Below are positions 2,837-35,547 of a stretch of 64,000 bases of DNA, piece after piece (position 1 is the stretch's first letter; each line of letters opens with the position of its first letter). The stretch is from Blastocatellia bacterium. GTDB lineage: Bacteria > Acidobacteriota > Blastocatellia > UBA7656. The DNA lies in assembly GCA_035575515.1 (NCBI GenBank), contig DATLXU010000127.1:97356-161355 (forward strand). Reading direction: 5' to 3'. Both the position numbers and the translations under genes were made by a program. The notes below the pieces were generated by a model. The model had not been told where the DNA came from, ran no database searches, and was given only the letters and a program-made list of their open reading frames with translations.

Positions 2837-3879
2837 TTCAAGTATCCTTGAACCTTCATCAACTCGGCGTTGAGTATGGCCGCGCCCGCAGCGCCGCGAA
2901 TCGTGTTGTGCGAAAGCACTACGAAGCGAACGTCAAAAACAGGGCATTCACGAATGCGGCCAATTACTGCGCTCATGCCGTTGCCAGCGTCGCGGTCAAA
3001 GCGAGGCTGCGGGCGGTCGCGCTCGCTCATCACTACGACTGGACGCTCAGGCGCGAACGGCAGCTTTAATTCTTGCGGAAGCGACTTGAAATTTGAAAGT
3101 GTTTGCGCGACTTCATCCGGCGACGGCTTCTTTTCAAACTCTACCGACACGCATTCCATGTGACCGTCTTCGACAAAGACGCGATTCGTGTGCGCGCTTA
3201 TTTTGCAATTGGCAAATCGAATATGACCGCCTTCGAGCGCGCCCATGATTTTGCGCGGCTCATCTTCGAGCTTATCCTCTTCGCTGCTGATGTAGGGGAT
3301 GACATTGCCGAGCATGTCAATCGCCGCAGGTCCCGGATAGCCCGCGCCCGACAGCGCCTGCATCGTCGTGACGATTGCTCGCGTGACTCTGAATGCGCGA
3401 TGAAGCGGCGCGAGCGCCATCACGAGTCCTACGGTCGAGCAGTTCGGATTCGTCACAATCGCGCCCGACCACCCGCGCCGCTCGCGTTGCGTCTTAATCA
3501 AGCCAAGATGATCGGGATTGATTTCTGGCACGAGCAGCGGCACATCTTCATCCATTCGATGATTCTTTGAGTTGCTCAAGACGATGTAGCCCGCGCGCGC
3601 GAAGTTCTCTTCGACCTCGCCCGCGACTGATGAATCAAGCCCTGAAAAAACGACGTGGCAATCAAGGTTCGGCTCACACGGCTTCACCATTTTGTCTTTG
3701 ACCGATTCAGGAATCGGCGTGTACTGCCGCCAGATTGTAGCGTCTTTATAAGGTTTGCCCGCCGAGCGGTCCGACGCCGCGAGTTCAGTCAGCTCGAACC
3801 ATGGATGACCATCAAGCAACTTGACGAATTTCTGCCCGACCGCGCCCGTCGCGCCCAATACTCCGACTGGAATCTTCAC
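2830..3879 (-). CDS. asd: Aspartate-semialdehyde dehydrogenase
   Basis: MKIPVGVLGATGAVGQKF NAD-binding N-terminus, active-site Cys region (NPNCSTV) and a C-terminal dimerisation domain. Confidence 0.9.
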   Translation of the reverse strand: MKIPVGVLGATGAVGQKFVKLLDGHPWFELTELAASDRSAGKPYKDATIWRQYTPIPESVKDKMVKPCEPNLDCHVVFSGLDSSVAGEVEENFARAGYIVLSNSKNHRMDEDVPLLVPEINPDHLGLIKTQRERRGWSGAIVTNPNCSTVGLVMALAPLHRAFRVTRAIVTTMQALSGAGYPGPAAIDMLGNVIPYISSEEDKLEDEPRKIMGALEGGHIRFANCKISAHTNRVFVEDGHMECVSVEFEKKPSPDEVAQTLSNFKSLPQELKLPFAPERPVVVMSERDRPQPRFDRDAGNGMSAVIGRIRECPVFDVRFVVLSHNTIRGAAGAAILNAELMKVQGYLNQ

Positions 3880-6540: not shown

Positions 6541-6650
6541 GTCGGGTGCCGGGTGAGAATAGCCATCGCCTTGAAATCGGCTTTGGCAGCTAGTTTCAGG
6601 GTAGCAACCATTGTTTCCCTGACCCCCGGCCCCTGACCCCTAGTTCAGTT
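6541..6650. repeat. Intergenic heptamer-repeat palindrome (gtcgggt gccgggt ... ccctgac ccccggc ccctgac)
   Basis: Same ggggtca/tgacccc sequence subfamily as the element at 531-612. Confidence 0.55.
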
Positions 6651-7227
6651 TCGCTTGCAGTCTCCTGAAGGCCTTAATTGCGAGCGCGTAATTCGGGTTC
6701 AAATCAATCGCCGCTTTGTATTCGCGGAGCGCGTCAAACAATCTGCCTTGCGCTTCATAAATCCTGCCGAGATTGAAGTGCGGATAAAAATAGCACTCGT
6801 AGCGCGGAGCGTCCATCGCTCGCTTAAGCCAGTTGATTGCGCCGTAGAGATCCCCTTTTTCAATCAGGTACGCGCCGATGTCGTTATAGGGGTTGCCGAA
6901 ATCCGGATCAACTTCAATCGCGCGGTGGCACTCCTCAATCGCTTCGTCGGTCAATCCCATGAAGCTGTATGTCCATCCTAAAAACGTATGCGCTTCGGCG
7001 GTCGGGTAAACGGCGATTGATTCACGGTAAAGGTCAGCCGCTTCATCAAGCTCGCCGCGCATCTGCGCTTCGTAAGCCTGCTTGAAGTATTCAAGAGCCT
7101 CGCGCTTGCGCGCAGCTTCTTCTTCGGTCAGGTATTCCGCTCGCCCGAAGGGCATATCGCCTATGCCAGTGTCTAGCGCGACGAGCGTTTTATTCTCGCT
7201 CTGCTTTGTTTCTGTCCTCTCGGCCAT
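6640..7227 (-). CDS. TPR-repeat protein
   Basis: Multiple 34-aa TPR-like repeats (AYEAQ..., AIEVDPDFGNPYN..., ALREYKAAIDLNPNYA). Confidence 0.75.
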   Translation of the reverse strand: MAERTETKQSENKTLVALDTGIGDMPFGRAEYLTEEEAARKREALEYFKQAYEAQMRGELDEAADLYRESIAVYPTAEAHTFLGWTYSFMGLTDEAIEECHRAIEVDPDFGNPYNDIGAYLIEKGDLYGAINWLKRAMDAPRYECYFYPHFNLGRIYEAQGRLFDALREYKAAIDLNPNYALAIKAFRRLQAKLN

Positions 7228-7323
7228 GTTTTCTAGCTGTCAGCAATCATCGGTCAGCTTTCAGCATAGCAGAAGCGTTGCGCGGCTCGGAAGTCGGCTG
7301 ATTGCGGAACGCTGATAGCTGAT

Positions 7324-9057
7324 TCAATACCCGATTGCCATCCCATCTTTGCGCGGGTCCGACGCGCCTGCGAGCATCCCCGTCGCCGGATCAATCATAA
7401 TCGCCTGACCGCCACCCATCGAAAGCGACCTATCGCTCATTCGCTCGTGACCTTTTTCAATCAATCGCTTGATGACCGCGTCACCCATCGCATCTTCCAT
7501 TATAACTCGCCTGCCGCTCACAAAACGAAATCGAGGCGCTTCAATCGCCTGCTGCAGATTCATCTTCAAATCAATCAGGTTCACAAGCACCTGCGTGTGG
7601 CCCTGCGGCTGGATGCCTCCGCCCATCACGCCGAACGACATGAAAAGTTTTCCGTCACGGAATACCATCGCCGGAATGATTGTATGAAAAGGTCGTTTGC
7701 CCGGCTCAAGCCTGTTGGGATGATTTGGATCGAGCGAGAATCCCGCGCCGCGATCATGAAGCACAATGCCCGTATCGCCCGCGACTATGCCTGAGCCGAA
7801 TGATTCGTAAAGGCTGTTGATGAACGAGACGGCGTTTCGGTCCTTATCAACGACGGTGAAATAAGTCGTGTCGCTGTGATTCGGAACAAGGCCCGGCTCG
7901 GCTTCGTCCATCGCGCGGTCAGAGTTGATGAGCTTGCGCCGCTCGGCTGCATATTGTTTCGAGAGCAGCTCGGCGACGGGAACCTTTGCGAAAGCCGGAT
8001 CAGCAATGTAGCGGTTGCGGTCTGCGAACGCCAGCTTCATCGCTTCGATCATCGTGTGATAATAAAGCTCAGGCTGCGCAGCCATCTTTGCAATATCAAA
8101 GCCTTCAAGGATGTTCAATGCTATCAGCGCCGCGAGTCCTTGCCCGTTCGGCGGGCATTCGTAAACCGTGTAGCCGCGATAGTCGGTTGAAATCGGCTCG
8201 ACCCACTCGGATCTGTGCTCAGCGAAATCCTGCATCGAAAGGAAGCCGCCGTTCTTCTGGCAGTAATCAACGATGGCGCGGGCGATCTCGCCTTTGTAGA
8301 AAGCATCGCGCCCGCCGCGAGCAAGCACACGAAAAGTGCGCGCGAGATTTTTCTGGCGGAAAACTTCGCCAGCGCGCGGCGCGCGTCCGTCAATCAAATA
8401 ATTCGCCGCAGCGGCAGGAGTCTTCTTGAGCTTATCAACTTCTGCGGCCCAATCCGCTGCGGCTTTTTCCATCACGGGAAAGCCGTTCTCGGCGTACTCG
8501 ATTGCGGGCTGAAGCAGGTCGCTCAATTTCATCGTGCCGTATTTTTCCAGCAGCGTCACCCATCCGTCGAATGCGCCGGGCACGGTGATTGGTTCCATGC
8601 CTGTGATCGGCATCTGTTTGATGCCGCGCTTTTTGAAATAGTCGAGCGTGAGCGCGCGAGGCGCTCGCCCGCTGGCGTTCAATGCTTTTAGCTCTTTCGT
8701 CTTCGACCAGTAGACGAGCATGAAAGCATCGCCGCCGATGCCTGTCATCATCGGCTCGGTGACGTTCAGCATCGCAGCCATCGCGATTGATGCATCAACG
8801 GCATTGCCGCCGCGCTTTAAGATTTCAAGCCCCACCTGTGAAGCGAGCGGCTGGCTCGACGCAACCATCCCGTGCTCGGCGCGCACGATTGAGCGGCCTG
8901 CTTTGACCCGCGCGGCAAGAGGCTTGTCGTCAGACGATTCGAGATGTGCTTCAACGCGGCGCAATTGCAGATTCATCATCAGCATTATAATCGCGAGCGC
9001 GATTGACAGGCTTGTGCGAGCGGCGTTTCGATTGAGCGATTTTCTGATATACGACAT
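7324..9057 (-). CDS. ggt: Gamma-glutamyltranspeptidase
   Basis: Signal peptide plus the catalytic Thr region TTYFTVVD and GGGIQ..GHTQV motifs of the GGT family. Confidence 0.9.
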   Translation of the reverse strand: MSYIRKSLNRNAARTSLSIALAIIMLMMNLQLRRVEAHLESSDDKPLAARVKAGRSIVRAEHGMVASSQPLASQVGLEILKRGGNAVDASIAMAAMLNVTEPMMTGIGGDAFMLVYWSKTKELKALNASGRAPRALTLDYFKKRGIKQMPITGMEPITVPGAFDGWVTLLEKYGTMKLSDLLQPAIEYAENGFPVMEKAAADWAAEVDKLKKTPAAAANYLIDGRAPRAGEVFRQKNLARTFRVLARGGRDAFYKGEIARAIVDYCQKNGGFLSMQDFAEHRSEWVEPISTDYRGYTVYECPPNGQGLAALIALNILEGFDIAKMAAQPELYYHTMIEAMKLAFADRNRYIADPAFAKVPVAELLSKQYAAERRKLINSDRAMDEAEPGLVPNHSDTTYFTVVDKDRNAVSFINSLYESFGSGIVAGDTGIVLHDRGAGFSLDPNHPNRLEPGKRPFHTIIPAMVFRDGKLFMSFGVMGGGIQPQGHTQVLVNLIDLKMNLQQAIEAPRFRFVSGRRVIMEDAMGDAVIKRLIEKGHERMSDRSLSMGGGQAIMIDPATGMLAGASDPRKDGMAIGY

Positions 9058-9188
9058 AGCGATTCACCTGCTTTGCGATTGGCTCCCGGTGAGATGATTT
9101 TACCGAAGCGCGATTATCGCACGATTATCTGAGGTGTCAACCGGATTGCGTCGGCTCGCTATGTTCACCTCTGCGCCCTCGTCGTATA

Positions 9189-10400
9189 ATGCAGACTATG
9201 CGAGCGGTAAAGGAGCAGAAGAGCAAAGCCGGATACATCATAGCGACGCTCTCAATCGCAGCCGCGACCGCCGCGCTTAAATTGTTCGGCAGCCATATCA
9301 ATTCAACAACAGTCGCGCTCGCGCTGCTGTTGATTGTTCTGTTCGTTGCAACTCGATGGGGATCGCGCCCCGCCGTCGTCGCTTCATTGCTCAGCATGGT
9401 TTGCTTCAACTATTTCTTCCTTCCGCCGGTGGGCACGTTGACCATAGCGACGCCCGACAACTGGGTTGCGCTCGCCGCGTTCTTAATCACCGCCGTCACC
9501 GCCGGAGAGCTTTCGGCTCGCGCAAGGCGGCGCGCCGAAGAGGCCGAAGCCGGACGGCGCGAGATCGAGCGTTTATACAGTGAGCTTCAAGACGCATTCG
9601 AGCGCGCAAGCTATGCGGAAGCTCTCAAACGTAGCGAGCGGTTGAAATCGGCTTTGTTAGACGCCGTGACGCATGACATTCGCACGCCGCTCACTTCCAT
9701 CAAAGCGTCCGTTACGACACTGCTCGACGAGTTGCGCGCAATGACAGGTGAAGCGGTCGCGCTCGACGCGGAAGGCCGCAGAGAGATGCTTGAAATAATT
9801 AACGAGGAAGCGGATCGGTTGAATCGTTTTGTCGAAAACCTTCTGGAGCTTGCGCGCATAGAAGCAGGCGAGATGCATCTCAGGCGCAGGTGGGGAGCGA
9901 TTGACGAGATAGTGCTTGCGGCGCTTGAGCGAGCCGAGCCGCTCACACGCCGTCACCGGATTGAAGCGGCTGTCGAGAACGAATTGCCGCTGGCGCGCGT
10001 TGACGGGCGAGCCGTTGCTGAAGTCCTTTATACTCTCATTGACAACGCCGCGAAGTATTCTCCGGCGGGCACGCGCATACGGGTTACGGCCAGTCGAGTT
10101 GATGAGAAGCTATTGCAGCTGTCGGTTGAAGATGAAGGGCCGGGCATTCCCGTTGAGATGCGCGAGCGCGCCTTCGATAAATTCTTTCGCGCAATGCGTG
10201 ACGGCGACTCAGGCGCGGGCCGCGCTTCGGGCGTAGGGATGGGACTGGCAATTGCGCGAGGCATTATCGAGGCGCACGGTGGGCGCATCTGGATTGAAGA
10301 TGGAGAGAACGGGCGCGGGACTCGCGTCGCGTTCACGTTGCCGGTGGGCAATGAAGAAGAAATTGCTCTGGAAGAATTGAAGCAGATCAGCTCCCGATGA
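9189..10400 (+). CDS. kdpD: KdpD C-terminal half: four-TM domain plus HisKA/HATPase sensor kinase; no KdpD N-terminal or Usp domain
   Basis: N-terminal TM bundle typical of the KdpD membrane domain, then H-box THDIRTPL and N/G boxes (GTRVAFTLP); adjacent to kdpE. Confidence 0.75.
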
Positions 10401-11294: not shown

Positions 11295-12884
11295 GTGCTA
11301 GCCTGTGAATGTGACGAGGTCCTGCAAGGAACTGCGGCCAGCCGACGCGCTGGGGAGATGAAAATGGGGATAAAATTGTTGGCAGCAGCTTTCGCCATCG
11401 CGATGGTTGTTTTGTTGTGGCTGCGCGAATTCATCCTCAGCATTGGAAAAAAGAAGAAAGCTGGCAGTGTCCACGAGGTGCTCGTCGTGCGCGCAGAGGA
11501 TGAAAGAAGACCGCCAGAGCGCGCAGATGTGGAAGAGAGTCCAGACGAAGTTCAGCCCGACGCTTCATCGGTTGAGATTGAAGAGTTTCTTGCCGAGCTT
11601 CGCGCGAAGGCGCAAGACAAGCCGCGCAAGAATAACTCTCTTTTCTTGATAGCCATCCCGGCTCTAGTTGCAAGCTGGTTGCCTGCTGCGGCTTCAATCT
11701 GTCGCGCTCAAAGCTCTAGCATCAAGATAGGCCCGGTCGTTTCTGACAAGACTAATTCCGGCAAGTCGTTACTCGATAATGCGGTCGCTGAGGAAGTAGC
11801 GTCTCAAGAACCGCAGAAACAGCAGTCGAAGCCTGAATGGAACTATGGTGGCTTCGTGGATGTTGGCTACTCGCTCGATTTCAACCATCCGGCAAATCTG
11901 TTTTTCCGAAGTCGCGGTACCGCTTGGCACGTCGATAACTTGTATCTGAATATAGCGGGCGCATATGTGAAGAAAGATCCCTCCGAATCTTCACGATGGG
12001 GCGGTCAATTGACAGTCCAAGGGGGGAAAGATTCCGAGGTTTTTGGGTTCTCCGCAACGGCTCCAAACATCGGAGGTTTCAAAGTCCTTCGCCACCTCGG
12101 TCCAACAAATGTGTCTTATCTTGCGCCTGTGGGCAAGGGACTCACTGTGCAGGGTGGAATCTTCGGCAGTTTGATCGGCTACGACTCGCTCTACGCCAAG
12201 GATAATTTAGAATATACCAGACCGTGGGGAGCCGACTTCACGCCGTATTTGATGATGGGCGTCAACGCGAGTTATCCCTTCAACGAGAAGCTCACCGGCG
12301 CGTTCTTCGTGATCAATGGATACTGGCATCTGGCCAACGCGAACAGTGTCCCTAGTTCGGGTGGCCAACTTGCCTATAAGGCAAGCCCGCGCGTGACAGT
12401 GAAGGAAACGGTTCTTTGGGGGCCTCATCAGTCGAACACCTCATTCAAGTTCTGGCGCTTCCTTACGGACACCATTGTCGAATGCAAGACAGATCGAGTT
12501 ACTTTTGCATTTGAATACATCTACTCGTCGGAACGTGTTGACGCTCTTGGAACGCCCCGCGCCTTGATGATGGCTGGCCAGTTGCCGGTGCATTTTGCTT
12601 TGAACAAACGGTGGAGTGCAACCGTTCGACCTGAGGTTTTCTGGGATCGCAATGGCCGGTGGACCTTAGCCAGGCAGACCGTCAAAGCCATCACGACTAC
12701 GCTCGAATATCGCATCCCGTACCGACAAACCAATACGATCCTGCGGCTGGAGCACCGGTATGACGATTCGCGGGGGCCAGATGGAGGCTTCTTCAGAGGT
12801 GCTGAAGTACAGCCAGGCATGGTCGGCTTGACGCCAACCCAGCACCTTTTGATTTTCGGGCTGCTCTTCACGTTCGACCGCTAA
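11295..12884 (+). CDS. Predicted outer-membrane beta-barrel porin co-transcribed with kdpFABC; start codon uncertain (11364 preferred)
   Basis: C-terminal ~380 aa show alternating amphipathic beta-strand patterns ending in the aromatic terminus LLFTFDR; the N-terminus is unusual (TM-like segment, acidic linker, second hydrophobic segment). Confidence 0.5.
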   Translation: MLACECDEVLQGTAASRRAGEMKMGIKLLAAAFAIAMVVLLWLREFILSIGKKKKAGSVHEVLVVRAEDERRPPERADVEESPDEVQPDASSVEIEEFLAELRAKAQDKPRKNNSLFLIAIPALVASWLPAAASICRAQSSSIKIGPVVSDKTNSGKSLLDNAVAEEVASQEPQKQQSKPEWNYGGFVDVGYSLDFNHPANLFFRSRGTAWHVDNLYLNIAGAYVKKDPSESSRWGGQLTVQGGKDSEVFGFSATAPNIGGFKVLRHLGPTNVSYLAPVGKGLTVQGGIFGSLIGYDSLYAKDNLEYTRPWGADFTPYLMMGVNASYPFNEKLTGAFFVINGYWHLANANSVPSSGGQLAYKASPRVTVKETVLWGPHQSNTSFKFWRFLTDTIVECKTDRVTFAFEYIYSSERVDALGTPRALMMAGQLPVHFALNKRWSATVRPEVFWDRNGRWTLARQTVKAITTTLEYRIPYRQTNTILRLEHRYDDSRGPDGGFFRGAEVQPGMVGLTPTQHLLIFGLLFTFDR

Positions 12885-12895
12885 GGATCCGGGTA

Positions 12896-13096
12896 GTGGA
12901 GGTGACAGAACTTTACACAGAGCTTAAAGCGCGACACGAGGCCGGCATATCGGAGTGGTCTCTGGTAAAGCGAATGGCGGAGGTCTTCGTCAAAGACCTT
13001 CGTTACTACATAGATTTCCTTATGGCTTGCTTTCTAGTCTGGCGTGAATTGCGCCGCGAGAGGGAAAGCGCAAAGAACAAGGATATTGCGGGGTAG
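12896..13096 (+). CDS. Hypothetical small protein between porin and kdpF
   Basis: 66-aa ORF with no recognisable family; coding status uncertain. Confidence 0.2.
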   Translation: MEVTELYTELKARHEAGISEWSLVKRMAEVFVKDLRYYIDFLMACFLVWRELRRERESAKNKDIAG

Positions 13097-13190
13097 ACAT
13101 GGGAGACATCATCTTCATCGCGCTGACAATTGTTTTCTTCGCCTTGTCCGTCTGGTACGTCCGATTCTGCGAAAAGGTGTAGGAGCCAAG

Positions 13191-13283
13191 ATGACGAATA
13201 TCGAATACATAATCAGCGGAGTAATTGCCCTGCTGTTGCTCTTTTATCTGATGTACGCGCTACTCAAGCCAGAGAGGTTTTAG
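13191..13283 (+). CDS. kdpF: Potassium-transporting ATPase subunit F
   Basis: [30 protein letters not shown], cf. E. coli KdpF MSAGVITGVLLVFLLLGYLVYALINAEAF; missed by the 60-aa ORF cutoff. Confidence 0.8.
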
Positions 13284-14155
13284 AGCGTGTTGAGAAATTA
13301 GAGGAGAGGCAGTGGAAATGGGTAAACTGTCATTGCCATGAACCGCACAACCCTATCCATCTGACCTCTCCGATGAGCAGTGGAAACTGCTCGAACCTAT
13401 GTTACCACCTGCGGTTCCTGCGCGGTCGCAAGCGAACGGTGGATTTGCGCGAAATTGTCAACGCTATCCTTTACCTGCTGCGGACGGGTTGTGCTTGGCG
13501 TTATTTGCCTCACGAGTTCCCCGAGTGGACGACCGTTTATTATTACTTGCGGTTGCTGGCGCGACTTAGACTGGTTCGCCAAACTCAACGGCGAATTACG
13601 CAGCCCGCATCCGCAGGGCTTACGGACGCGACCGTAGACCCTAGCGCCGCCATCATCGATTCGCAATCGGTAAAGACGACCGAGCACGGGCGGCGAAAAA
13701 GGCTATGACGCGGGCAAGAAAGTCAATTGGCGCAAGCGTCATATCCTGGTCGATACCTTGGGCTTGTTGCTCTCGGTCAAAGTCTTGGCAGCCAATATCC
13801 AAGACCGCGGGGAGCGCGAAAGCCTTACTCGATGAAGTCAAAGAACGACCCCCGCGCCTCCACTTGATCTGGGCCGATGGCGGCTATGGCGGCAAGTTGA
13901 TTACTTGGGTAGCGACGAAGCGGTTTGTGGTTATTGCAAGTCGTCAAGCGCACAGATGACGTCAAAGGCTTCGTGGTTTTGCCCAGACGATGGGTCGTTG
14001 AACTTGCCCTTCGGCTGGCTGGGTCGCCCGCCGACGATTGAGCAAAGACTATGAGCGGCATTGTGAATCCTCCGAGTCGTTTGTTTATCTGGCGATGATT
14101 CACCTGATGCTCAAGCGGTTGAAGCCTATGCGAACTTAATTTCTCAACACGCTCT
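13284..14155 (+). mobile_element. Decayed IS5-family insertion sequence with perfect 19-bp terminal inverted repeats, inserted between kdpF and kdpA
   Basis: Left IR AGAGCGTGTTGAGAAATTA (13282-13300) and right-end reverse complement TAATTTCTCAACACGCTCT (14137-14155); internal reading frames encode transposase fragments. Confidence 0.8.
13363..14133 (+). pseudogene. IS5-family (DDE) transposase disrupted by at least four frameshifts
   Basis: [16 protein letters not shown] / [30 protein letters not shown] / [14 protein letters not shown] / [24 protein letters not shown] / LIWADGGYGGKLI / [18 protein letters not shown] lie in three different frames. Confidence 0.8.
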
Positions 14156-14160
14156 TAGAT

Positions 14161-15936
14161 ATGACTATCAACGGTTGGTTGCAAATCCTGTTATTCCTCG
14201 CGGCAATCTTGCTGGTCACAAAGCCGCTCGGTGTCTATATGGCGCGAGTGTTTAATCGCGAGAAAACGTTTCTCGATAGGGTGTTGCGCCCAATCGAACA
14301 ACTTATCTATCGCCTGACTCGCGTTGACGAATCGCGCGAGATGCGCTGGACCGAGTACGCCGTCGCGATGCTACTGTTCAGTGCCGTCTCGATGGTGGTG
14401 CTATACCTACTTCAGCGGCTTCAAGGTGTGCTGCCTTTCAACCCACAGAACCTGTCAGGCGTCGGAGATCATTCATCTTTCAACACAGCCGCGTCGTTCA
14501 CGACAAACACCAACTGGCAAAGCTACGTGCCAGAAACGACGATGAGCTACCTGACGCAGATGGCCGGGCTCGCTTATCACAATTTCGTCTCTGCCGCGGT
14601 CGGCATCGCACTCGCCATTGCCTTCATTCGTGGCATCGCCCGGCGCGAGAAAGACACAATCGGCAACTTCTGGGTTGACTTTGTGCGCTGCACCCTCTGG
14701 GTGCTTGTCCCGTTCTGCGTAATCGGCGCGCTCGCGCTCGTCTCGCAGGGCGTCGTACAAAACCTCAAACCTTATGACACGGCGAAGCTCGTCGAGCCGC
14801 TGACGGTAGAAAAAGAGTTGGAGGATGGCAGGAAAACTACGGAGACAGTCATCGAGCAGGTGATAGCTCAAGGGCCTGTCGCGTCGCAGGAGATAATCAA
14901 AGAGTTGGGCACAAACGGTGGAGGGTTCTTCAACGCCAATAGTGCGCACCCGTTTGAAAATCCCACGCCGCTTGCGAACTTCATAGAACTGTTTGCCATC
15001 TTCGCCATCTCTTCGGGGCTTACTTACACGCTAGGGCGAATGACCGGCTCGCAGCGACACGGTTGGGCCGTGTGGGGAGCGATGGCCGCGCTGTTTCTGG
15101 TCGGAGTCGCAGTCAGCTACTGGTCAGAAGCGCGAGGCAACCCGCTGCTTGCGGGCACTGACCAGACCGTAAGCGCGATGCAATCGGGCGGCAACATGGA
15201 AGGCAAAGAAGTCCGCTTCGGCATTGCCAACTCTGCGCTGTTTGCAACCGTCACGACCGACGCATCGTGCGGTGCGGTCAACTCGATGCTTGACTCATAC
15301 ACGCCGCTCGGCGGGCTTGTGCCGCTTACAAATATGATGCTCGGCGAAGTCATATTCGGCGGCGTCGGCGCTGGTATGTACGGCATTCTGATTTTCGTAA
15401 TACTTTCAGTCTTCATCGCGGGATTGATGGTCGGTCGCACGCCTGAATACTTGGGCAAGAAGATTGAAAGCTATGACGTGAAGATGGCGATGCTCGCCGT
15501 GCTGATCTTCCCTCTGACAATTCTCATACTGGCGGGCATATCGGCAATCTCGCCGTCGTTTGGCACATCGAGCATCTTAAATCCCGGCCCGCATGGGCTT
15601 TCAGAGATTCTTTACGCTTACACTTCCGGCACTGGCAACAACGGCTCTGCGTTCGCAGGGATTTCTGCCAACACGCCCTGGTACAACACGACAATTGGGC
15701 TGGCGATGCTTATCGGGCGATTCCTGATAATCATCCCGATGCTTGCTGTCGCGGGCAATCTCGGTCGCAAGAAGATAGTGCCGCCATCGCTCGGAACGTT
15801 TCCCGTAACGACGCCGCTGTTCACGGCGCTGCTCGTCTCGGTGATCGTGATTGTTGGTGCATTGACTTTCTTTCCTGCGCTGAGCCTTGGCCCCATTGTT
15901 GAACACTTGCTGATGGGAGCGGGACAAAGTTTCTGA
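14161..15936 (+). CDS. kdpA: Potassium-transporting ATPase subunit A
   Basis: [32 protein letters not shown]-terminus and selectivity-filter-like regions; 591 aa. Confidence 0.9.
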
Positions 15937-31219: not shown

Positions 31220-31582
31220 AAGTTGTTGCGCTCAGCCGAGTCAAAGCGCGCGTTTTCAACGATGATGAATTGATTACAGATTTCGTTGAAGCGGCGCGGG
31301 CGTTGTGATATATTGCGAAACCTCATACGAAGTACGGATTCATATCTCGATTGATTTCAACTGGCTTGATTTTTTGCCATAAGCAGAACGCGGGCTAAGG
31401 AAACCGCAGCCGCAGAGTTGAAGCGAAGGCAGGCCGAATAAACAGTCAAATCCTCACCATTCCGGCTGTCCCTGTTTGCCTTTGCTGTCCGTGCTCGCAG
31501 GCATTGCGGCAAGCCCATCCGCTCACCAGAAGACAGATCGCTGATTCAGGCGATGAAAAACGCTTTAGTGGAGGCAACCGTC

Positions 31583-32440
31583 ATGAGGAGAACTTTCGCT
31601 TCTGTTCTGTTGGTCGGTTTAACATTCGCTTCTGCGGCCTGGCTGATGATGCCGACAGCCAAAGCCGAAACCATAATCTTTACCGCCCAGTTGCTGGCTT
31701 CCAACGAAGTCCCGCCGGTAGCCGTCGCTCCGTCGGAAGCGGGCGCAAACGGATTTGCTACGGTCACACTCGACGTGACCAGAGATTCGGGAGGAAACAT
31801 CACCGCCGCCACAGCGAGGTTCGATGTCAGCATAAGCGGCATGGCGGCAAACTCCTCAATCATACTTGCCCACATTCACGAAGGCGGCGCGACCGTCAAC
31901 GGTCCCGTTAGAGTTGATTCGGGCATAACGCCCGCCGCGCCGATTGCAGCGCCGCTCGGCGCTGCCACTTTCACCCGCTCGAACCTGACGGTCGCGCCCG
32001 CGCTCGCGCAGTCAATCATAAACAATCCGGGCGGGTTCTATTTCAACGTCCACACGGCCCTGAGTCCCAACGGCGTTGCGCGCGGACAGCTCTCTCGCCA
32101 GCAGCAGACGACTCCGGGAATCACAGCGCCGACGCTTTCAGAGTGGGGCGCGATACTGATGACACTCTTGATAATCGCCGCCTGCACGTTCTTCCTGCTC
32201 GGGCGCGCTCGCGCGGTTATGGCGACGGCCAATGCTGATAGCTCCGCTCCGCTCGATGCTTCTTTGAAGGCGGTTGATTGGAAGCTGCTGGCGCGCGTCG
32301 CCTTCTACATCGAAGCGGCAATCGCGATTGCGCTGTTTGCCATCGCGCCCGGTGTTGTTGACGCGATAGGCGCGCTCGTCGCGGGTTTGATTGTGGCGTT
32401 CATCGCACACCTGTTCGCAGCAAACGCGCGGCTACGCTGA
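31583..32440 (+). CDS. Secreted CHRD-domain protein with an IPTL-CTERM-like segment followed by an unusual ~65-aa hydrophobic extension
   Basis: Signal peptide; CHRD-like body (FTAQL..NEVPP...GFYFNVHT..NGVARGQL); TAPTLSEWGAILMTLLIIAACTFFLLGRARA resembles the IPTL-CTERM consensus; the ORF continues with two more TM-like helices. Confidence 0.6.
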   Translation: MRRTFASVLLVGLTFASAAWLMMPTAKAETIIFTAQLLASNEVPPVAVAPSEAGANGFATVTLDVTRDSGGNITAATARFDVSISGMAANSSIILAHIHEGGATVNGPVRVDSGITPAAPIAAPLGAATFTRSNLTVAPALAQSIINNPGGFYFNVHTALSPNGVARGQLSRQQQTTPGITAPTLSEWGAILMTLLIIAACTFFLLGRARAVMATANADSSAPLDASLKAVDWKLLARVAFYIEAAIAIALFAIAPGVVDAIGALVAGLIVAFIAHLFAANARLR

Positions 32441-32558
32441 ACGCGTGCAAGTTGAATCTTAAATTGAATGGCGAGTGATGCGCCGACGATGATTAAACTA
32501 TAATTATCGCGCGGGCATCGCTCGCCGTCGTTTAAGCGCGGGCGATTGAATAAAGCTG

Positions 32559-33095
32559 ATGGGGGTAGCCGAACAAGCCATTTCTTTCGTGAGCGCGAAC
32601 CGCAAAGCTCTGCGTTTTCTCGCGCTGTTCGCGCTCGCGTTCGGCGTGTGCTATTTTGTGTTCGGGATAGCGCCGGGCGTGCGGCGCGGACTGATCAAGC
32701 CGTACACGGAGTTATTAGCGAAAGCGGTCGCTGCGATAATCAACCTGTTCGGCGCGGGCGCAACCGCTGATGGAACAATCGTTGGGTCGCCTGAGTTTTC
32801 CGTCAACATTGCAATGGGCTGCGACGGCGTGGAAGCGTCGAGCCTCTTTCTGGCCGGAGTGCTTGCGTTTCCGACTACGCGGCGAGCGAAGCTTTTAGGA
32901 TTAGCGATTGGCGTTCCGCTCATTCAAGTGATTAATCTCGCGCGCCTTGTCGGGTTATACTACGCGGGCCTGATAGTGCCGTCGGCGATTGAAGGAATAC
33001 ATGTCTATGTCGCCCAAACCGTCGTCATCCTCCTGTCGACAGCCATCCTTATCGTCTGGCTCGAACGATTTGCCATTCGAGCCGGGAAAACATAA
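32559..33095 (+). CDS. Short exosortase/archaeosortase-family transmembrane protein
   Basis: Polytopic membrane protein with a Cys-containing motif AMGCDGVEASS (cf. exosortase CSGLRS) and IQVINLARLVGLY (cf. the conserved N-x-x-R); immediately follows the IPTL-CTERM-like substrate gene. Confidence 0.55.
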   Translation: MGVAEQAISFVSANRKALRFLALFALAFGVCYFVFGIAPGVRRGLIKPYTELLAKAVAAIINLFGAGATADGTIVGSPEFSVNIAMGCDGVEASSLFLAGVLAFPTTRRAKLLGLAIGVPLIQVINLARLVGLYYAGLIVPSAIEGIHVYVAQTVVILLSTAILIVWLERFAIRAGKT

Positions 33096-33735
33096 ATGGC
33101 TGCGGCTCGTGCTGCTGGCCATTGGCCTGTATCTTATCTTCATTCCAGTATGGCTCCTCACGCTCAATGCCATTGCATGGTTTGCCGCAACCGTCGCGCA
33201 GTGGATTTATCTGCTGTTAGACCCGCTCATCTCAATCAAAGCTAACGGCAACACGGTTGATGTAGTCGTGATGGCATCTGCTCAGAGCGGCTTCGGCGGG
33301 CAGGTCTATTCGCAGCCGCTGAGAGTCGACACGGTGACTTACGGACTGCCCGTGATAGCGGCGCTCGTTCTGGTCACGCGCGCCGATTCGACTCGCGCGA
33401 AGCTGCGCGCGCTTGCAATCGGAATGATCGTAATGCTTGTGACGAGCGTGCCTGCTGTGATGATGTGGGCGAAGCTTACGAGCCTTCAACTTGAAGAGCA
33501 GCTGGCGCGAGCAGCGATGAGCACAAGCGGCGACCGTTCGAGCTTTTTCTATTACGCATTTCACGGCTACGCATTCTCGCAGCCGGTCATCGCTGTTGCG
33601 GTGTGGCTCGCGCTCTTGATGTTCGGATTATTCAAAGATAAAAAGAAGCAGCCTTTGTCGCAAGCAATCGCCCGCAACGTGCCCTGCCCCTGCGGCAGCG
33701 GGAGGAAGTATAAGCGATGCTGCGGGCGCGCGTGA
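32989..33735 (+). CDS. Polytopic membrane protein ending in a SEC-C metal-binding motif; start uncertain, may be frame-linked to the upstream exosortase gene
   Basis: Several TM helices; C-terminus [14 protein letters not shown] is a SEC-C motif; the N-terminal ~35 codons overlap the 3' end of the exosortase-family gene. Confidence 0.45.
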
Positions 33736-33742
33736 CGACTCG

Positions 33743-34573
33743 TTGTCGGAAGCGATTTCATCAGAAATAGACAATCTCAACGCGGAGGCAAACTTGAACT
33801 GGCAAGATTTATTGAAGCTCGGCGGCATTGCAATCGTTGTCGTAGGGCTTGCGCTCAGGTGGCGCACGACCGTCGTTGTACTTGTGGCGGCGCTCGTGAC
33901 GGGCATCGCTGCGGGGCTGCCGCTGTTTTCCGATCAGGGAGTTTTTCATTCAATTCCGTTCCTGACAAAGCCCGGACAGGAAGGAATCATAAACACGCTC
34001 GGCAAGGAGTTCGTGAAGAATCGGCTGATGACGCTCTTTATCATCACGCTTCCGGCCATAGGACTGTCGGAACGCTTCGGGCTGCAGGAGCAATCAGCCG
34101 CGCTCATTCGCCGCATCAGCGCGGCAACCGTCGGGCGACTCCAGATCGTCTATCAGTTCTTTCGCGTGCTGATTGGAATCACGGGCATAAGGGTCAACGG
34201 TCATCCGTCGTTCGTTCGCCCGATGGTCTTTCCGATGTCTGTTGGCGCAGCCGAAGCTGCGCTCGAAGTTAAGAGCGCCGATGATGTGCCGGAAGAGTTG
34301 GTCGAGGAGATCAAAGCGGCAAACGCGGCGAGCGAGAACTACGGGAATTTTTATGGCCAGAACCTCAACCCTGTTCAGGCGGGCATTCTTCTCGTTCTTA
34401 CGAACCTGAACGGGGTGATGGAAAAGGTCGGCTACGACAAGCGAGTTGACGCTTTTACGCTTGTGCTGTTCGCCATACCCATCACAAGTATATCGGTCAT
34501 TTTAGGAGCGGCTCAATTCCTGCTCTTTGACAGGCGGATCAAAAGAAGAAAAGCGGCTGGCAATAGGTCATGA
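33743..34573 (+). CDS. DUF969-family membrane protein
   Basis: Polytopic membrane protein; a gene pair with the downstream DUF979-like protein, and the stop overlaps its start. Confidence 0.55.
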
Positions 34574-35547
34574 TGTTTGCAACTATTCTTTCATCGCTGG
34601 CGAAAGCGGTCTTCAGCCTCGAAGCGGTTTACATAATGACGGGCGCGGTGCTGCTCGTCTTTGCCGCGATGACTTTTCGCGACCGTCAGAACCCGCGACG
34701 ACTTGGCAGCGCGCTTTTCTGGCTCATACTCGGATTGATATTCGCGCTTGGCAGCCTGCTTGAGTCATGGATAGTCGGATTGCTCATCATCGCGATGGTC
34801 GCGCTCGACGGCGCGGGCCGCGTCACTCGCGGCAGCCACAAAGAAGCCACAAAGCAAGAGCAGATCGCGAACGCGAGCCGATTGCGATACAAAATCTTTC
34901 TGCCCGTGCTGGCCATCCCTGTTGTCACCTTTGCGTTTGCGATTGCGTTTCTAAGTCTCGGCCTCAACGTCACGGACGGCGCGCTAGTCGGACTCGGCTT
35001 CGGAGGCGTCGCAGCAATGATCGTTTGCCTGAGGCTCACGGGCAGCAGCGCGCGACTGATGATGCAGGATGGCCGGCGGCTCAACGATGCGATGGGCACG
35101 CTGAACATATTGCCTCAGTTGCTCGCGTCGCTCGGAGTCATCTTCACCGCCGCAGGCGTTGGCAACTTGATAGCGAAAGGAATCATTCAGGTAGTCCCGG
35201 CGAATAACCTGTTCCTGCTCGTGCTCGCGAATTGTCTCGGCATGGCGATGTTCACGATAGTGACAGGCAATTCGTTTGCGGCTTTTCCTGTGATTGCTTC
35301 GGGCGTGCTTGTGCCGCTGCTCATCGTGCCGTATGACGTGAATCCGGCTATGGTCGGAATCATCACGCTGACGGCAGGCTCAAGCGGGACGCTGATGACT
35401 CCAATGGCGGCGAATTTTAATATAGTGCCTGCGGCGCTACTGGATATGCGCGATCAGTATGGCGTTATAAAATTTCAACTGCCGTTCGCGCTCGTAATCT
35501 GGTCATTGCACGTCGTGCTGATGTGGCTGATGATAAAACTGTTTTAG
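34570..35547 (+). CDS. DUF979-family membrane protein
   Basis: Polytopic membrane protein typical of the DUF969/DUF979 paired families. Confidence 0.55.

Follow-up and report, generated by a model that had tools for sequence, protein, structure and literature searches.

In the XrtA (EpsH) exosortase system an accessory membrane protein is encoded beside the sortase, and XrtA itself, with eight transmembrane (TM) helices, is much larger than the exosortase H (XrtH) considered here. For archaeosortase A (ArtA), conserved sortase-like active-site residues are required, and substrates are cut at a C-terminal tripartite signal and lipid-anchored (PMC6098224). An ArtA substrate of Haloferax volcanii whose tripartite signal is not C-terminal was processed, and the resulting N-terminal and C-terminal pieces could be detected (Abdul Halim et al. 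2017; PMC6098224). Exosortase systems are widespread and have received very little experimental work in the literature searched; on IPTL-CTERM and XrtH we found one incidental mention, of a Methylomirabilis S-layer protein with an IPTL-CTERM domain. Here we analyse a cassette of three plus-strand genes in a 64-kb stretch of DNA (the window; contig DATLXU010000127.1, positions 97,356 to 161,355) from a Blastocatellia (Acidobacteriota) metagenome-assembled genome (MAG), which encodes, in order, a CHRD-domain protein (the cargo), XrtH and an XrtH-associated membrane protein (the partner). The XrtH/IPTL identity of the system is already established and correctly named in public annotation; newer are a conserved hairpin of two TM helices behind the sorting signal of the cargo, and the SEC-C tail of the partner. 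We consider it probable that the three genes are an XrtH sorting cassette in which the CHRD cargo is cleaved at or near a P-T-L motif and the hairpin takes an active part in sorting.

Protein sequences were searched against NCBIfam (TIGR and NF models) and Pfam, with scores judged against the curated cutoffs, and structures were modelled with AlphaFold2 (AF2). The three open reading frames (ORFs) described in an earlier note on this DNA are all present on the plus strand, and the sequences quoted there were found: TAPTLSEWGAILMTLLIIAACTFFLLGRARA, followed by residues with two hydrophobic helices; GCDGVEASS and INLARLV, both in the XrtH translation; and the SEC-C C-terminus. The features of the cassette are as follows.

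31583..32440, + strand: cargo gene, 285 residues plus stop, from the ORF list; 100% identical to the 285-residue protein P0001.
31583..31666, + strand: N-terminal signal peptide, MRRTFASVLLVGLTFASAAWLMMPTAKA, then ETIIF; the cleavage site is putative.
31679..32092, + strand: CHRD domain (PF07452), the extracytoplasmic cargo.
32126..32215, + strand: IPTL-type tripartite sorting signal, made up of APTLSEWG, TM helix 1 and the basic cluster GRARA.
32216..32263, + strand: variable stretch of about 16-20 residues linking the basic cluster to the hairpin, of low conservation and presumed cytoplasmic.
32264..32437, + strand: conserved two-TM hairpin, LKAVDWKLLARVAFYIE…VDAIGALVAGLIVAFIAHLF…ARLR, in which an acidic residue is conserved along with a G-A-L motif and a His.
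32458..32536, + strand: intergenic RNA/DNA stem-loop in the gap between cargo and XrtH, recognised by folding energy.
32559..33095, + strand: XrtH, 178 residues (TIGR04177).
32820-32822, 32943-32945 and 33000-33002, + strand: candidate catalytic codons of XrtH (Cys88, Arg129 and His148, respectively), chosen by invariance.
33070..33735, + strand: XrtH-associated membrane protein, 221 residues from TTG 33070 (NF041730/PF28117; homologue N-termini).
33673..33729, + strand: SEC-C zinc-binding motif (PF02810), after the basic stretch KDKKK and presumed cytoplasmic.

The enzyme of the cassette was identified by profile searches. The 178-residue protein scored 103.4 bits against TIGR04177 (cutoff 86), with residues 24-169 aligned to positions 3-153 of the 158-position profile, and 43.7 bits against TIGR04178, the exosortase/archaeosortase signature (cutoff 23); it also matched PF09721 (Exosortase_EpsH) at 29.1 bits. 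Membership of the exosortase/archaeosortase family, as the earlier note had proposed from sequence motifs, was thereby confirmed. Scores against the XrtA/EpsH models were far lower, 17.9 against a cutoff of 208 and 20.5 against a cutoff of 105.6. Residues C88, R129 and H148 were invariant among 24 aligned XrtH sequences. The public name of the identical sequence at NCBI is 'exosortase H [Blastocatellia bacterium]', and many homologues at JGI are called 'exosortase H (IPTLxxWG-CTERM-specific)'. The protein had been described as much shorter than a canonical exosortase; however, most of its 120 closest homologues are 176-180 residues long, with 178 the commonest length, and together with the 158-position model this makes 178 residues the normal length of XrtH.

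These data bear on the suggestion that the locus encodes a previously unassigned, minimal exosortase for IPTL-CTERM together with a new SEC-C accessory. In its favour, genes for an exosortase-family enzyme and for a membrane protein with SEC-C adjoin a substrate-like tail, and hardly anything on IPTL-CTERM is to be found in the open literature. The view that IPTL-CTERM lacks an assigned sortase of its own was nevertheless wrong, since TIGR04177 is exosortase H; the curated model is passed, the NCBI and JGI names already read XrtH or IPTLxxWG-CTERM-specific, the accessory family is catalogued as NF041730/PF28117, and the length is that of an ordinary XrtH. We therefore regard an unassigned exosortase as very improbable. 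The functional pairing that had been proposed, of an IPTL-type substrate with its cognate sortase and a SEC-C accessory, survives; its novelty does not.

The sorting signal of the window cargo consists of APTLSEWG, then AILMTLLIIAACTFFLL, then GRARA, which is the tripartite layout of motif, hydrophobic helix and basic cluster. In a family alignment of 26 sequences, P183, T184, L185, W188 and G189 were invariant, giving P-T-L-x-x-W-G, and 24 of the 26 cargo homologues matched TIGR04174, several of them above cutoff (21-27 bits). The IPTL-CTERM models aligned to residues 193-209 of the 295-residue ORF, and no second motif of this kind was found in the 64-kb window. The distance from motif to stop codon is 103 residues in the window and 97-108 residues in all Blastocatellia-type relatives, so the signal does not lie at the extreme C-terminus. 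The cleavage site is presumed to be within or beside the motif.

The earlier note had remarked that the ORF continues past the IPTL-like signal with two more hydrophobic helices. This continuation is real and conserved: more than 800 homologues of about 270-290 residues span 96-97% of the cargo ORF, tail included. Some 75 conserved residues follow the signal, comprising the variable linker and then the two-TM hairpin, D-x-x-G-x-L…A-Y-x-x-H-L, in which E244, D260, G263, A264 and L265 were invariant and H276 and L277 near-invariant in the 26-sequence alignment. The AF2 model of the tail has helices at residues 185-216, 233-253 and 261-284, with linker residues 218-225 at a predicted local distance difference test score (pLDDT) below 50. 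No Pfam or NCBIfam model covers the hairpin.

To follow the module beyond this family, a profile of 108 positions was searched against 1.84 billion cluster representatives (E ≤ 1e-3). The 334 matching representatives ranged from 140 to 1449 residues, and nearly all matched the whole profile at their extreme C-terminus. Module proteins that were inspected share D-[IV]-x-G-x-L-x-S-x-x-I-x-A-Y-x-x-H-L on the C-terminal side of the IPTL helix. Ahead of the module they are unrelated to one another, with CHRD, DUF6345, Big_1, beta-helix, peptidase C13 and laminin-G among the domains present. Found at the ends of proteins with unrelated N-termini, the module behaves as a portable, long-form sorting tag.

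Further loci were collected from metagenomes by scanning for the module motif and were then searched with local profiles, over about 300 kb of flanks. In three distant loci (L070, L071 and L077) a long-form cargo lies directly 5' of an XrtH-like gene, and in others, including L009 and L076, a long-form cargo was found with no XrtH nearby. Short-form cargos, with 27-35 residues from motif to stop, lie beside XrtH or XrtH-like genes in L087, L090 and L091. In L073, which encodes an XrtH of 105.7 bits, two short IPTL-CTERM cargos are each followed by a separate 68-residue hairpin ORF matching profile positions 48-106 (cargo 1-300 with hairpin ORF 364-621; cargo 751-2019 with hairpin ORF 2093-2311). 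The two hairpin ORFs are nearly identical; the other strand carries XrtH (3125-3658, minus) together with a weak XrtH_assoc-like ORF. As the hairpin is fused to the cargo in some loci and split from it in L073, a sorting-linked function can be argued for it whether or not it is covalently attached. The extension is conserved, portable and separable, and is not an artefact; it deserves a family model of its own.

L076, a 150-kb metagenome contig, encodes tandem proteins of more than 1000 residues with divergent long-form modules (6572-10333 and 11835-15095), and no XrtH was found within 10 kb of these tandem cargos. In other lineages, then, the long-form tag serves several cargos per genome.

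A broader proposal, which we put forward tentatively and hold to be possible rather than likely, is that the hairpin is an unmodelled, separable component of XrtH sorting that would act in cis when fused and in trans as the 68-residue gene, docking the signal helix on XrtH and the partner, or presenting it to them, or acting after cleavage. Under this proposal IPTL signals would exist in short and long forms, and Blastocatellia would use one-cargo cassettes with a SEC-C partner linking processing to translocation.

The conservation of the cassette as a whole was examined by scanning an XrtH alignment over one genome per GTDB species, which gave 34 XrtH loci, followed by local profile searches. 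A module-ending ORF was found directly upstream of XrtH in all 34 genome loci, in agreement with the expected co-occurrence of the IPTL-like tail with this sortase, and all Blastocatellia-type metagenome loci with enough sequence also had an IPTL-type cargo directly upstream of XrtH. Divergent genomes whose flanking genes differ keep the order cargo, XrtH, XrtH_assoc/SEC-C, and the identical XrtH is found on 17 contigs, Blastocatellia MAG assemblies among them. More than 100 homologues keep the tail extension, and the same holds for the short sortase and for the SEC-C fusion, which rules out chance. In about 598 kb of flanks, PTLSEWG-like motifs were found only upstream of XrtH, plus one in L009, which bears the module without XrtH; from each of these motifs it is 97-106 residues to the stop codon. 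No short-form tails were detected in the ~598-kb flanks of the genome loci, the scan having covered the flanks of fetched loci only.

The cargo was of the CHRD type in 27 of the 34 loci and of an ice-binding-like/Ig (immunoglobulin) type in the other 7 (L026, L030, L033, L034, L036, L038 and L042, at about 7900-9900 in each). Cargos of these paralogous cassettes, about 600-780 residues long, combine an ice-binding-like domain (PF11999) and 3-4 He_PIG Ig repeats with the IPTL-plus-hairpin module that also ends the CHRD cargos. One cassette of each type is present in three genomes, CAZJQQ01, DLHY01 and QHVH01, and the locus L059 (7964-10321) also has a cassette of the ice-binding-like type. The taxonomy labels of the 34 loci are nearly all Blastocatellia or Acidobacteriota; four loci, from three MAGs, are labelled 'uncultured Clostridia'. 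These four (L022, L031, L034 and L041) carry Blastocatellia-type cassettes with XrtH identities of 67-70%, and the labels look wrong.

The third gene was called mechanically as the ORF 32989..33735, which overlaps XrtH by 107 nucleotides. This large overlap is only apparent, because the first possible start codon was taken. Homologue N-termini (MPFxxGxHxWLRLL) and the local profile place the start at TTG 33070; gene callers start the protein at GTG 33109. An overlap with the 3' end of XrtH, as described earlier, is real, but it amounts to 26 nucleotides from TTG 33070 and not to 107. The partner scored 32.9 bits against NF041730 ('exosortase H-associated membrane protein', cutoff 35), and both PF28117 (XrtH_assoc) and PF02810 are on record for an identical 208-residue protein and for nearly all homologues listed. 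The SEC-C motif that had been recognised at its C-terminus matched PF02810 with 37.2 bits (cutoff 20.4, E = 2.6e-9); C206, C208, C217 and C218 were invariant in 28 sequences and are predicted metal ligands. The AF2 model of the partner had a pLDDT of 84.9, and a fold search of this model against the PDB returned nothing below E = 1.

A SEC-C-tailed partner lies downstream of XrtH in 32 of the 34 loci. In L025 and L028 a NUDIX-like ORF comes after XrtH, and the second cassette of the L028 genome, L042, has the partner. The weak XrtH_assoc-like ORFs of L073 and L091, and the unassigned ORF 3' of the XrtH-like gene of L090, had no SEC-C tail; within this sample the tail is thus a feature of the Blastocatellia clade. 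Weak cross-hits raised the question whether XrtH_assoc might have decayed from an exosortase paralogue; a profile-profile comparison, which aligned only 19 columns with a probability of 6.9%, gave this no support. One 362-residue protein, P0217, from a 2.8-kb metagenome contig, combines Exosortase_EpsH and XrtH_assoc in a single chain, by natural fusion or by frameshift.

It had also been proposed that the second and third ORFs are the two halves of one longer exosortase gene, divided by a frameshift or an error in the sequence near 33090. The 107-nucleotide overlap of the mechanical ORFs would fit such a split, as would the presence of both domains in P0217. However, the same two-gene layout with a short overlap is found on the 17 contigs with identical XrtH and in divergent genomes, XrtH matches its model from end to end (3-153 of 158) and has a conserved C-terminus, and the downstream protein belongs to a family of its own, XrtH_assoc, with its own conserved N-terminus and no meaningful homology to XrtH. 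A split gene is rejected as extremely unlikely.

The protein on which this machinery would act was characterized in the same way. The cargo ORF spans 31553..32440 (295 residues), of which the in-frame ATG 31553 is a less likely start than ATG 31583 (285 residues); the latter is preferred because relatives begin there and the identical protein P0001 is on record. The position of the signal peptide is conserved in the family alignment, and AF2 places a helix there (residues 2-21). The CHRD domain matched PF07452 over the full profile (positions 1-117 of 117) with 58.3 bits (cutoff 24.1, E = 1.8e-15) and was modelled as a beta-sandwich with pLDDT 92-97. Foldseek matches of this domain were only weakly like Cu,Zn-superoxide dismutase (best E = 1.6e-3), which points to fold and not to function. 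The domain contains an H-x-H motif (H97 invariant, H99 near-invariant) and an invariant H157; these histidines, together with the weak resemblance to superoxide dismutase in the model, hint at a metal site. Current models label these XrtH cargos merely 'CHRD domain-containing protein'.

From these features a mechanism can be outlined by analogy with ArtA. Sec would export the CHRD cargo, and the C-terminal four-part module would first hold it in the inner membrane. The linker and the cargo C-terminus would face the cytoplasm, judging from GRARA, the Lys/Arg residues before helix 2 and the terminal RLR, as would the SEC-C motif, judging from the KDKKK stretch. XrtH, a small polytopic membrane enzyme with Cys88, Arg129 and His148 as candidate catalytic residues, would then recognise motif and helix and cut at or near the motif, either freeing the CHRD domain from its anchor or handing it to some acceptor. 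Because the signal is non-terminal, such a 'mid-cut' would leave a fragment of about 100 residues with three TM helices in the membrane. Cleavage of a signal in this position is feasible, given the ArtA precedent (PMC6098224) and the existence of the NCBIfam family NF033207 ('midcut-by-XrtH'). We infer that the hairpin is a working part and not a passive remnant, for example one that docks or presents the signal helix to XrtH or to the partner, because it is strongly conserved, occurs on many unrelated cargos and is a free-standing gene elsewhere. The partner is probably in a complex with XrtH; the 26-nucleotide overlap of the two genes suggests both translational coupling and complex formation.

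Several points weigh against this mechanism. The window protein falls below both IPTL-CTERM cutoffs, with 16.3 bits against TIGR04174 (cutoff 20.5) and 16.5 bits against PF18203 (cutoff 20.8), because its signal is non-terminal and begins with APTL instead of IPTL. Members of the CHRD family reach 16-21 bits against the NF033207 cutoff of 45, over profile positions ~13-64, the motif part only. L025 and L028, both CHRD-type, had no partner gene after XrtH (downstream of 10540) even with search filters off; with two of 34 loci lacking it, the partner may be non-essential. The flank scans suggest cargo-specific cassettes, and as flanks only were scanned, further short-form substrates elsewhere in the genome are possible. 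The searchable literature contained no experimental paper on XrtH or on any IPTL-CTERM substrate, and exosortases were without experimental analysis as of a 2018 review (PMC6098224). The presumably cytoplasmic SEC-C tail may tie the complex to a cytoplasmic partner, for instance the Sec machinery or the ribosome, which is pure conjecture.

Finally, the conserved three-TM tail is also compatible with a permanent anchor that is never cut. The uncut CHRD protein would then be a stable subunit or regulator of an XrtH complex, with the true, short-signal substrates elsewhere in the genome. The invariant polar residues of the hairpin would suit a functional membrane domain, and the constant adjacency of cargo and XrtH (34/34 loci) and the sub-cutoff IPTL match of the window protein are also consistent with a permanent anchor. 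On the other hand, the module ends hundreds of unrelated proteins of up to 1449 residues, many of them away from XrtH, which is tag-like and not subunit-like; the P-T-L-x-x-W-G residues are invariant; the hairpin is a separate gene behind classic short-signal cargos; the intergenic stem or terminator suggests that cargo and enzyme are expressed at different levels; and the homologous ArtA cuts non-terminal signals (PMC6098224). We consider a permanent anchor unlikely, and cleavage of the cargo by XrtH the probable course.

The gap of 118 nucleotides between the cargo gene and the XrtH gene contains the stem-loop at 32458-32536, with an RNA minimum free energy of -53.5 kcal/mol (z = -4.06). In most related cassettes this gap likewise contains a stem, as strong as that of the window but unrelated to it in sequence and in several cases followed by T-runs, and the stems of L024 and L032 resemble classic intrinsic terminators. 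A simple terminator scan did not flag the stem in the window, because its T-run is weak. The stem is probably a leaky terminator or attenuator that holds cargo expression above that of the sortase; in the mechanism outlined above it would keep the cargo in excess over XrtH.

Genes around the cassette were also noted. Upstream in the window lie genes for a formiminotransferase-cyclodeaminase and an enoyl-CoA hydratase. Directly 3' of the cassette is a DUF969/DUF979 pair of membrane-protein genes (33743-34573 and 34570-35547, plus strand) with a 4-nucleotide stop/start overlap; the pair follows the cassette in the close relatives L001-L006 and not in L007 or L008, and so is probably outside the sorting unit. 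In L007 (5632-7537, minus strand) and L008 (5354-7259, minus strand), which represent two divergent genomes, the cassette adjoins divergently transcribed genes for RmlD-like and dTDP-glucose dehydratase-like proteins, and from these sugar-nucleotide neighbours a tie between the cassette and glycan synthesis is possible.

The compact Blastocatellia cassettes offer a clean test system for XrtH cleavage, for the function of the hairpin and for the importance of the SEC-C tail. The ~100-residue membrane remnant makes the substrate convenient for experiments, as the two fragments left by a cut should each be observable; it was with a comparable non-terminal substrate that proteolysis by an archaeosortase could be demonstrated (PMC6098224).

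Among described systems the cassette is closest to XrtH/IPTL-CTERM (TIGR04177, TIGR04174, PF18203), with which it shares a sortase passing the XrtH model, the sequence P-T-L-x-x-W-G, TM helix and basic cluster, and an XrtH_assoc gene downstream. It differs in that the signal lies ~100 residues from the C-terminus and is followed by the conserved two-TM hairpin, in that the Blastocatellia loci have one adjacent cargo per XrtH and no short-form tails in the flanks, and in that the partner is SEC-C-tailed, whereas the weak XrtH_assoc-like ORFs beside distant XrtH or XrtH-like genes have no such tail. NF033207 (175 positions, cutoff 45) is alike, judged from its family name, in having an IPTL-like signal in mid-protein beside XrtH. 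The window protein gave no match to this model at E ≤ 1. Matches were obtained with 11 of 26 CHRD-family members and 77 of 124 other module-bearing proteins, all below cutoff at 16-38 bits, and those inspected covered only profile positions ~13-89, the motif and the first helix. Membership in NF033207 was rejected after tests on the window protein, 26 family members and 134 module-bearing proteins, every score being below cutoff, and the D-x-x-G-x-L…A-Y-x-x-H-L hairpin differs from the remainder of that model. A signal in mid-protein is not unprecedented, given this family and the cleaved non-terminal ArtA substrate (PMC6098224): the idea of a mid-protein XrtH signal was already known, and it is this particular module that is unmodelled.

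The remaining systems share single elements with the cassette. The CxC…CC zinc knuckle of the partner, with basic residues on its flanks, is shared with SecA SEC-C and YchJ-like proteins, and weak YchJ-like and SWIM/SEC-C matches of the partner are to the tail only; here the SEC-C motif forms the end of a polytopic membrane protein that belongs to a sortase system, with no SecA or YchJ body. PEP-CTERM and XrtA (EpsH), with EpsI, belong to the same enzyme superfamily and follow the same tripartite signal logic, but XrtA, which recognises PEP and not PTL, acts on many substrates whose signals are terminal. The ArtA case of Haloferax volcanii resembles the present one in its homologous archaeosortase and in a sorting signal with additional protein sequence behind it (PMC6098224). 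There, however, the arrangement is a strain-specific fusion to a downstream NifU-domain gene (PMC6098224), whereas here the signal is followed by a conserved, widespread membrane hairpin that is carried by many cargos.

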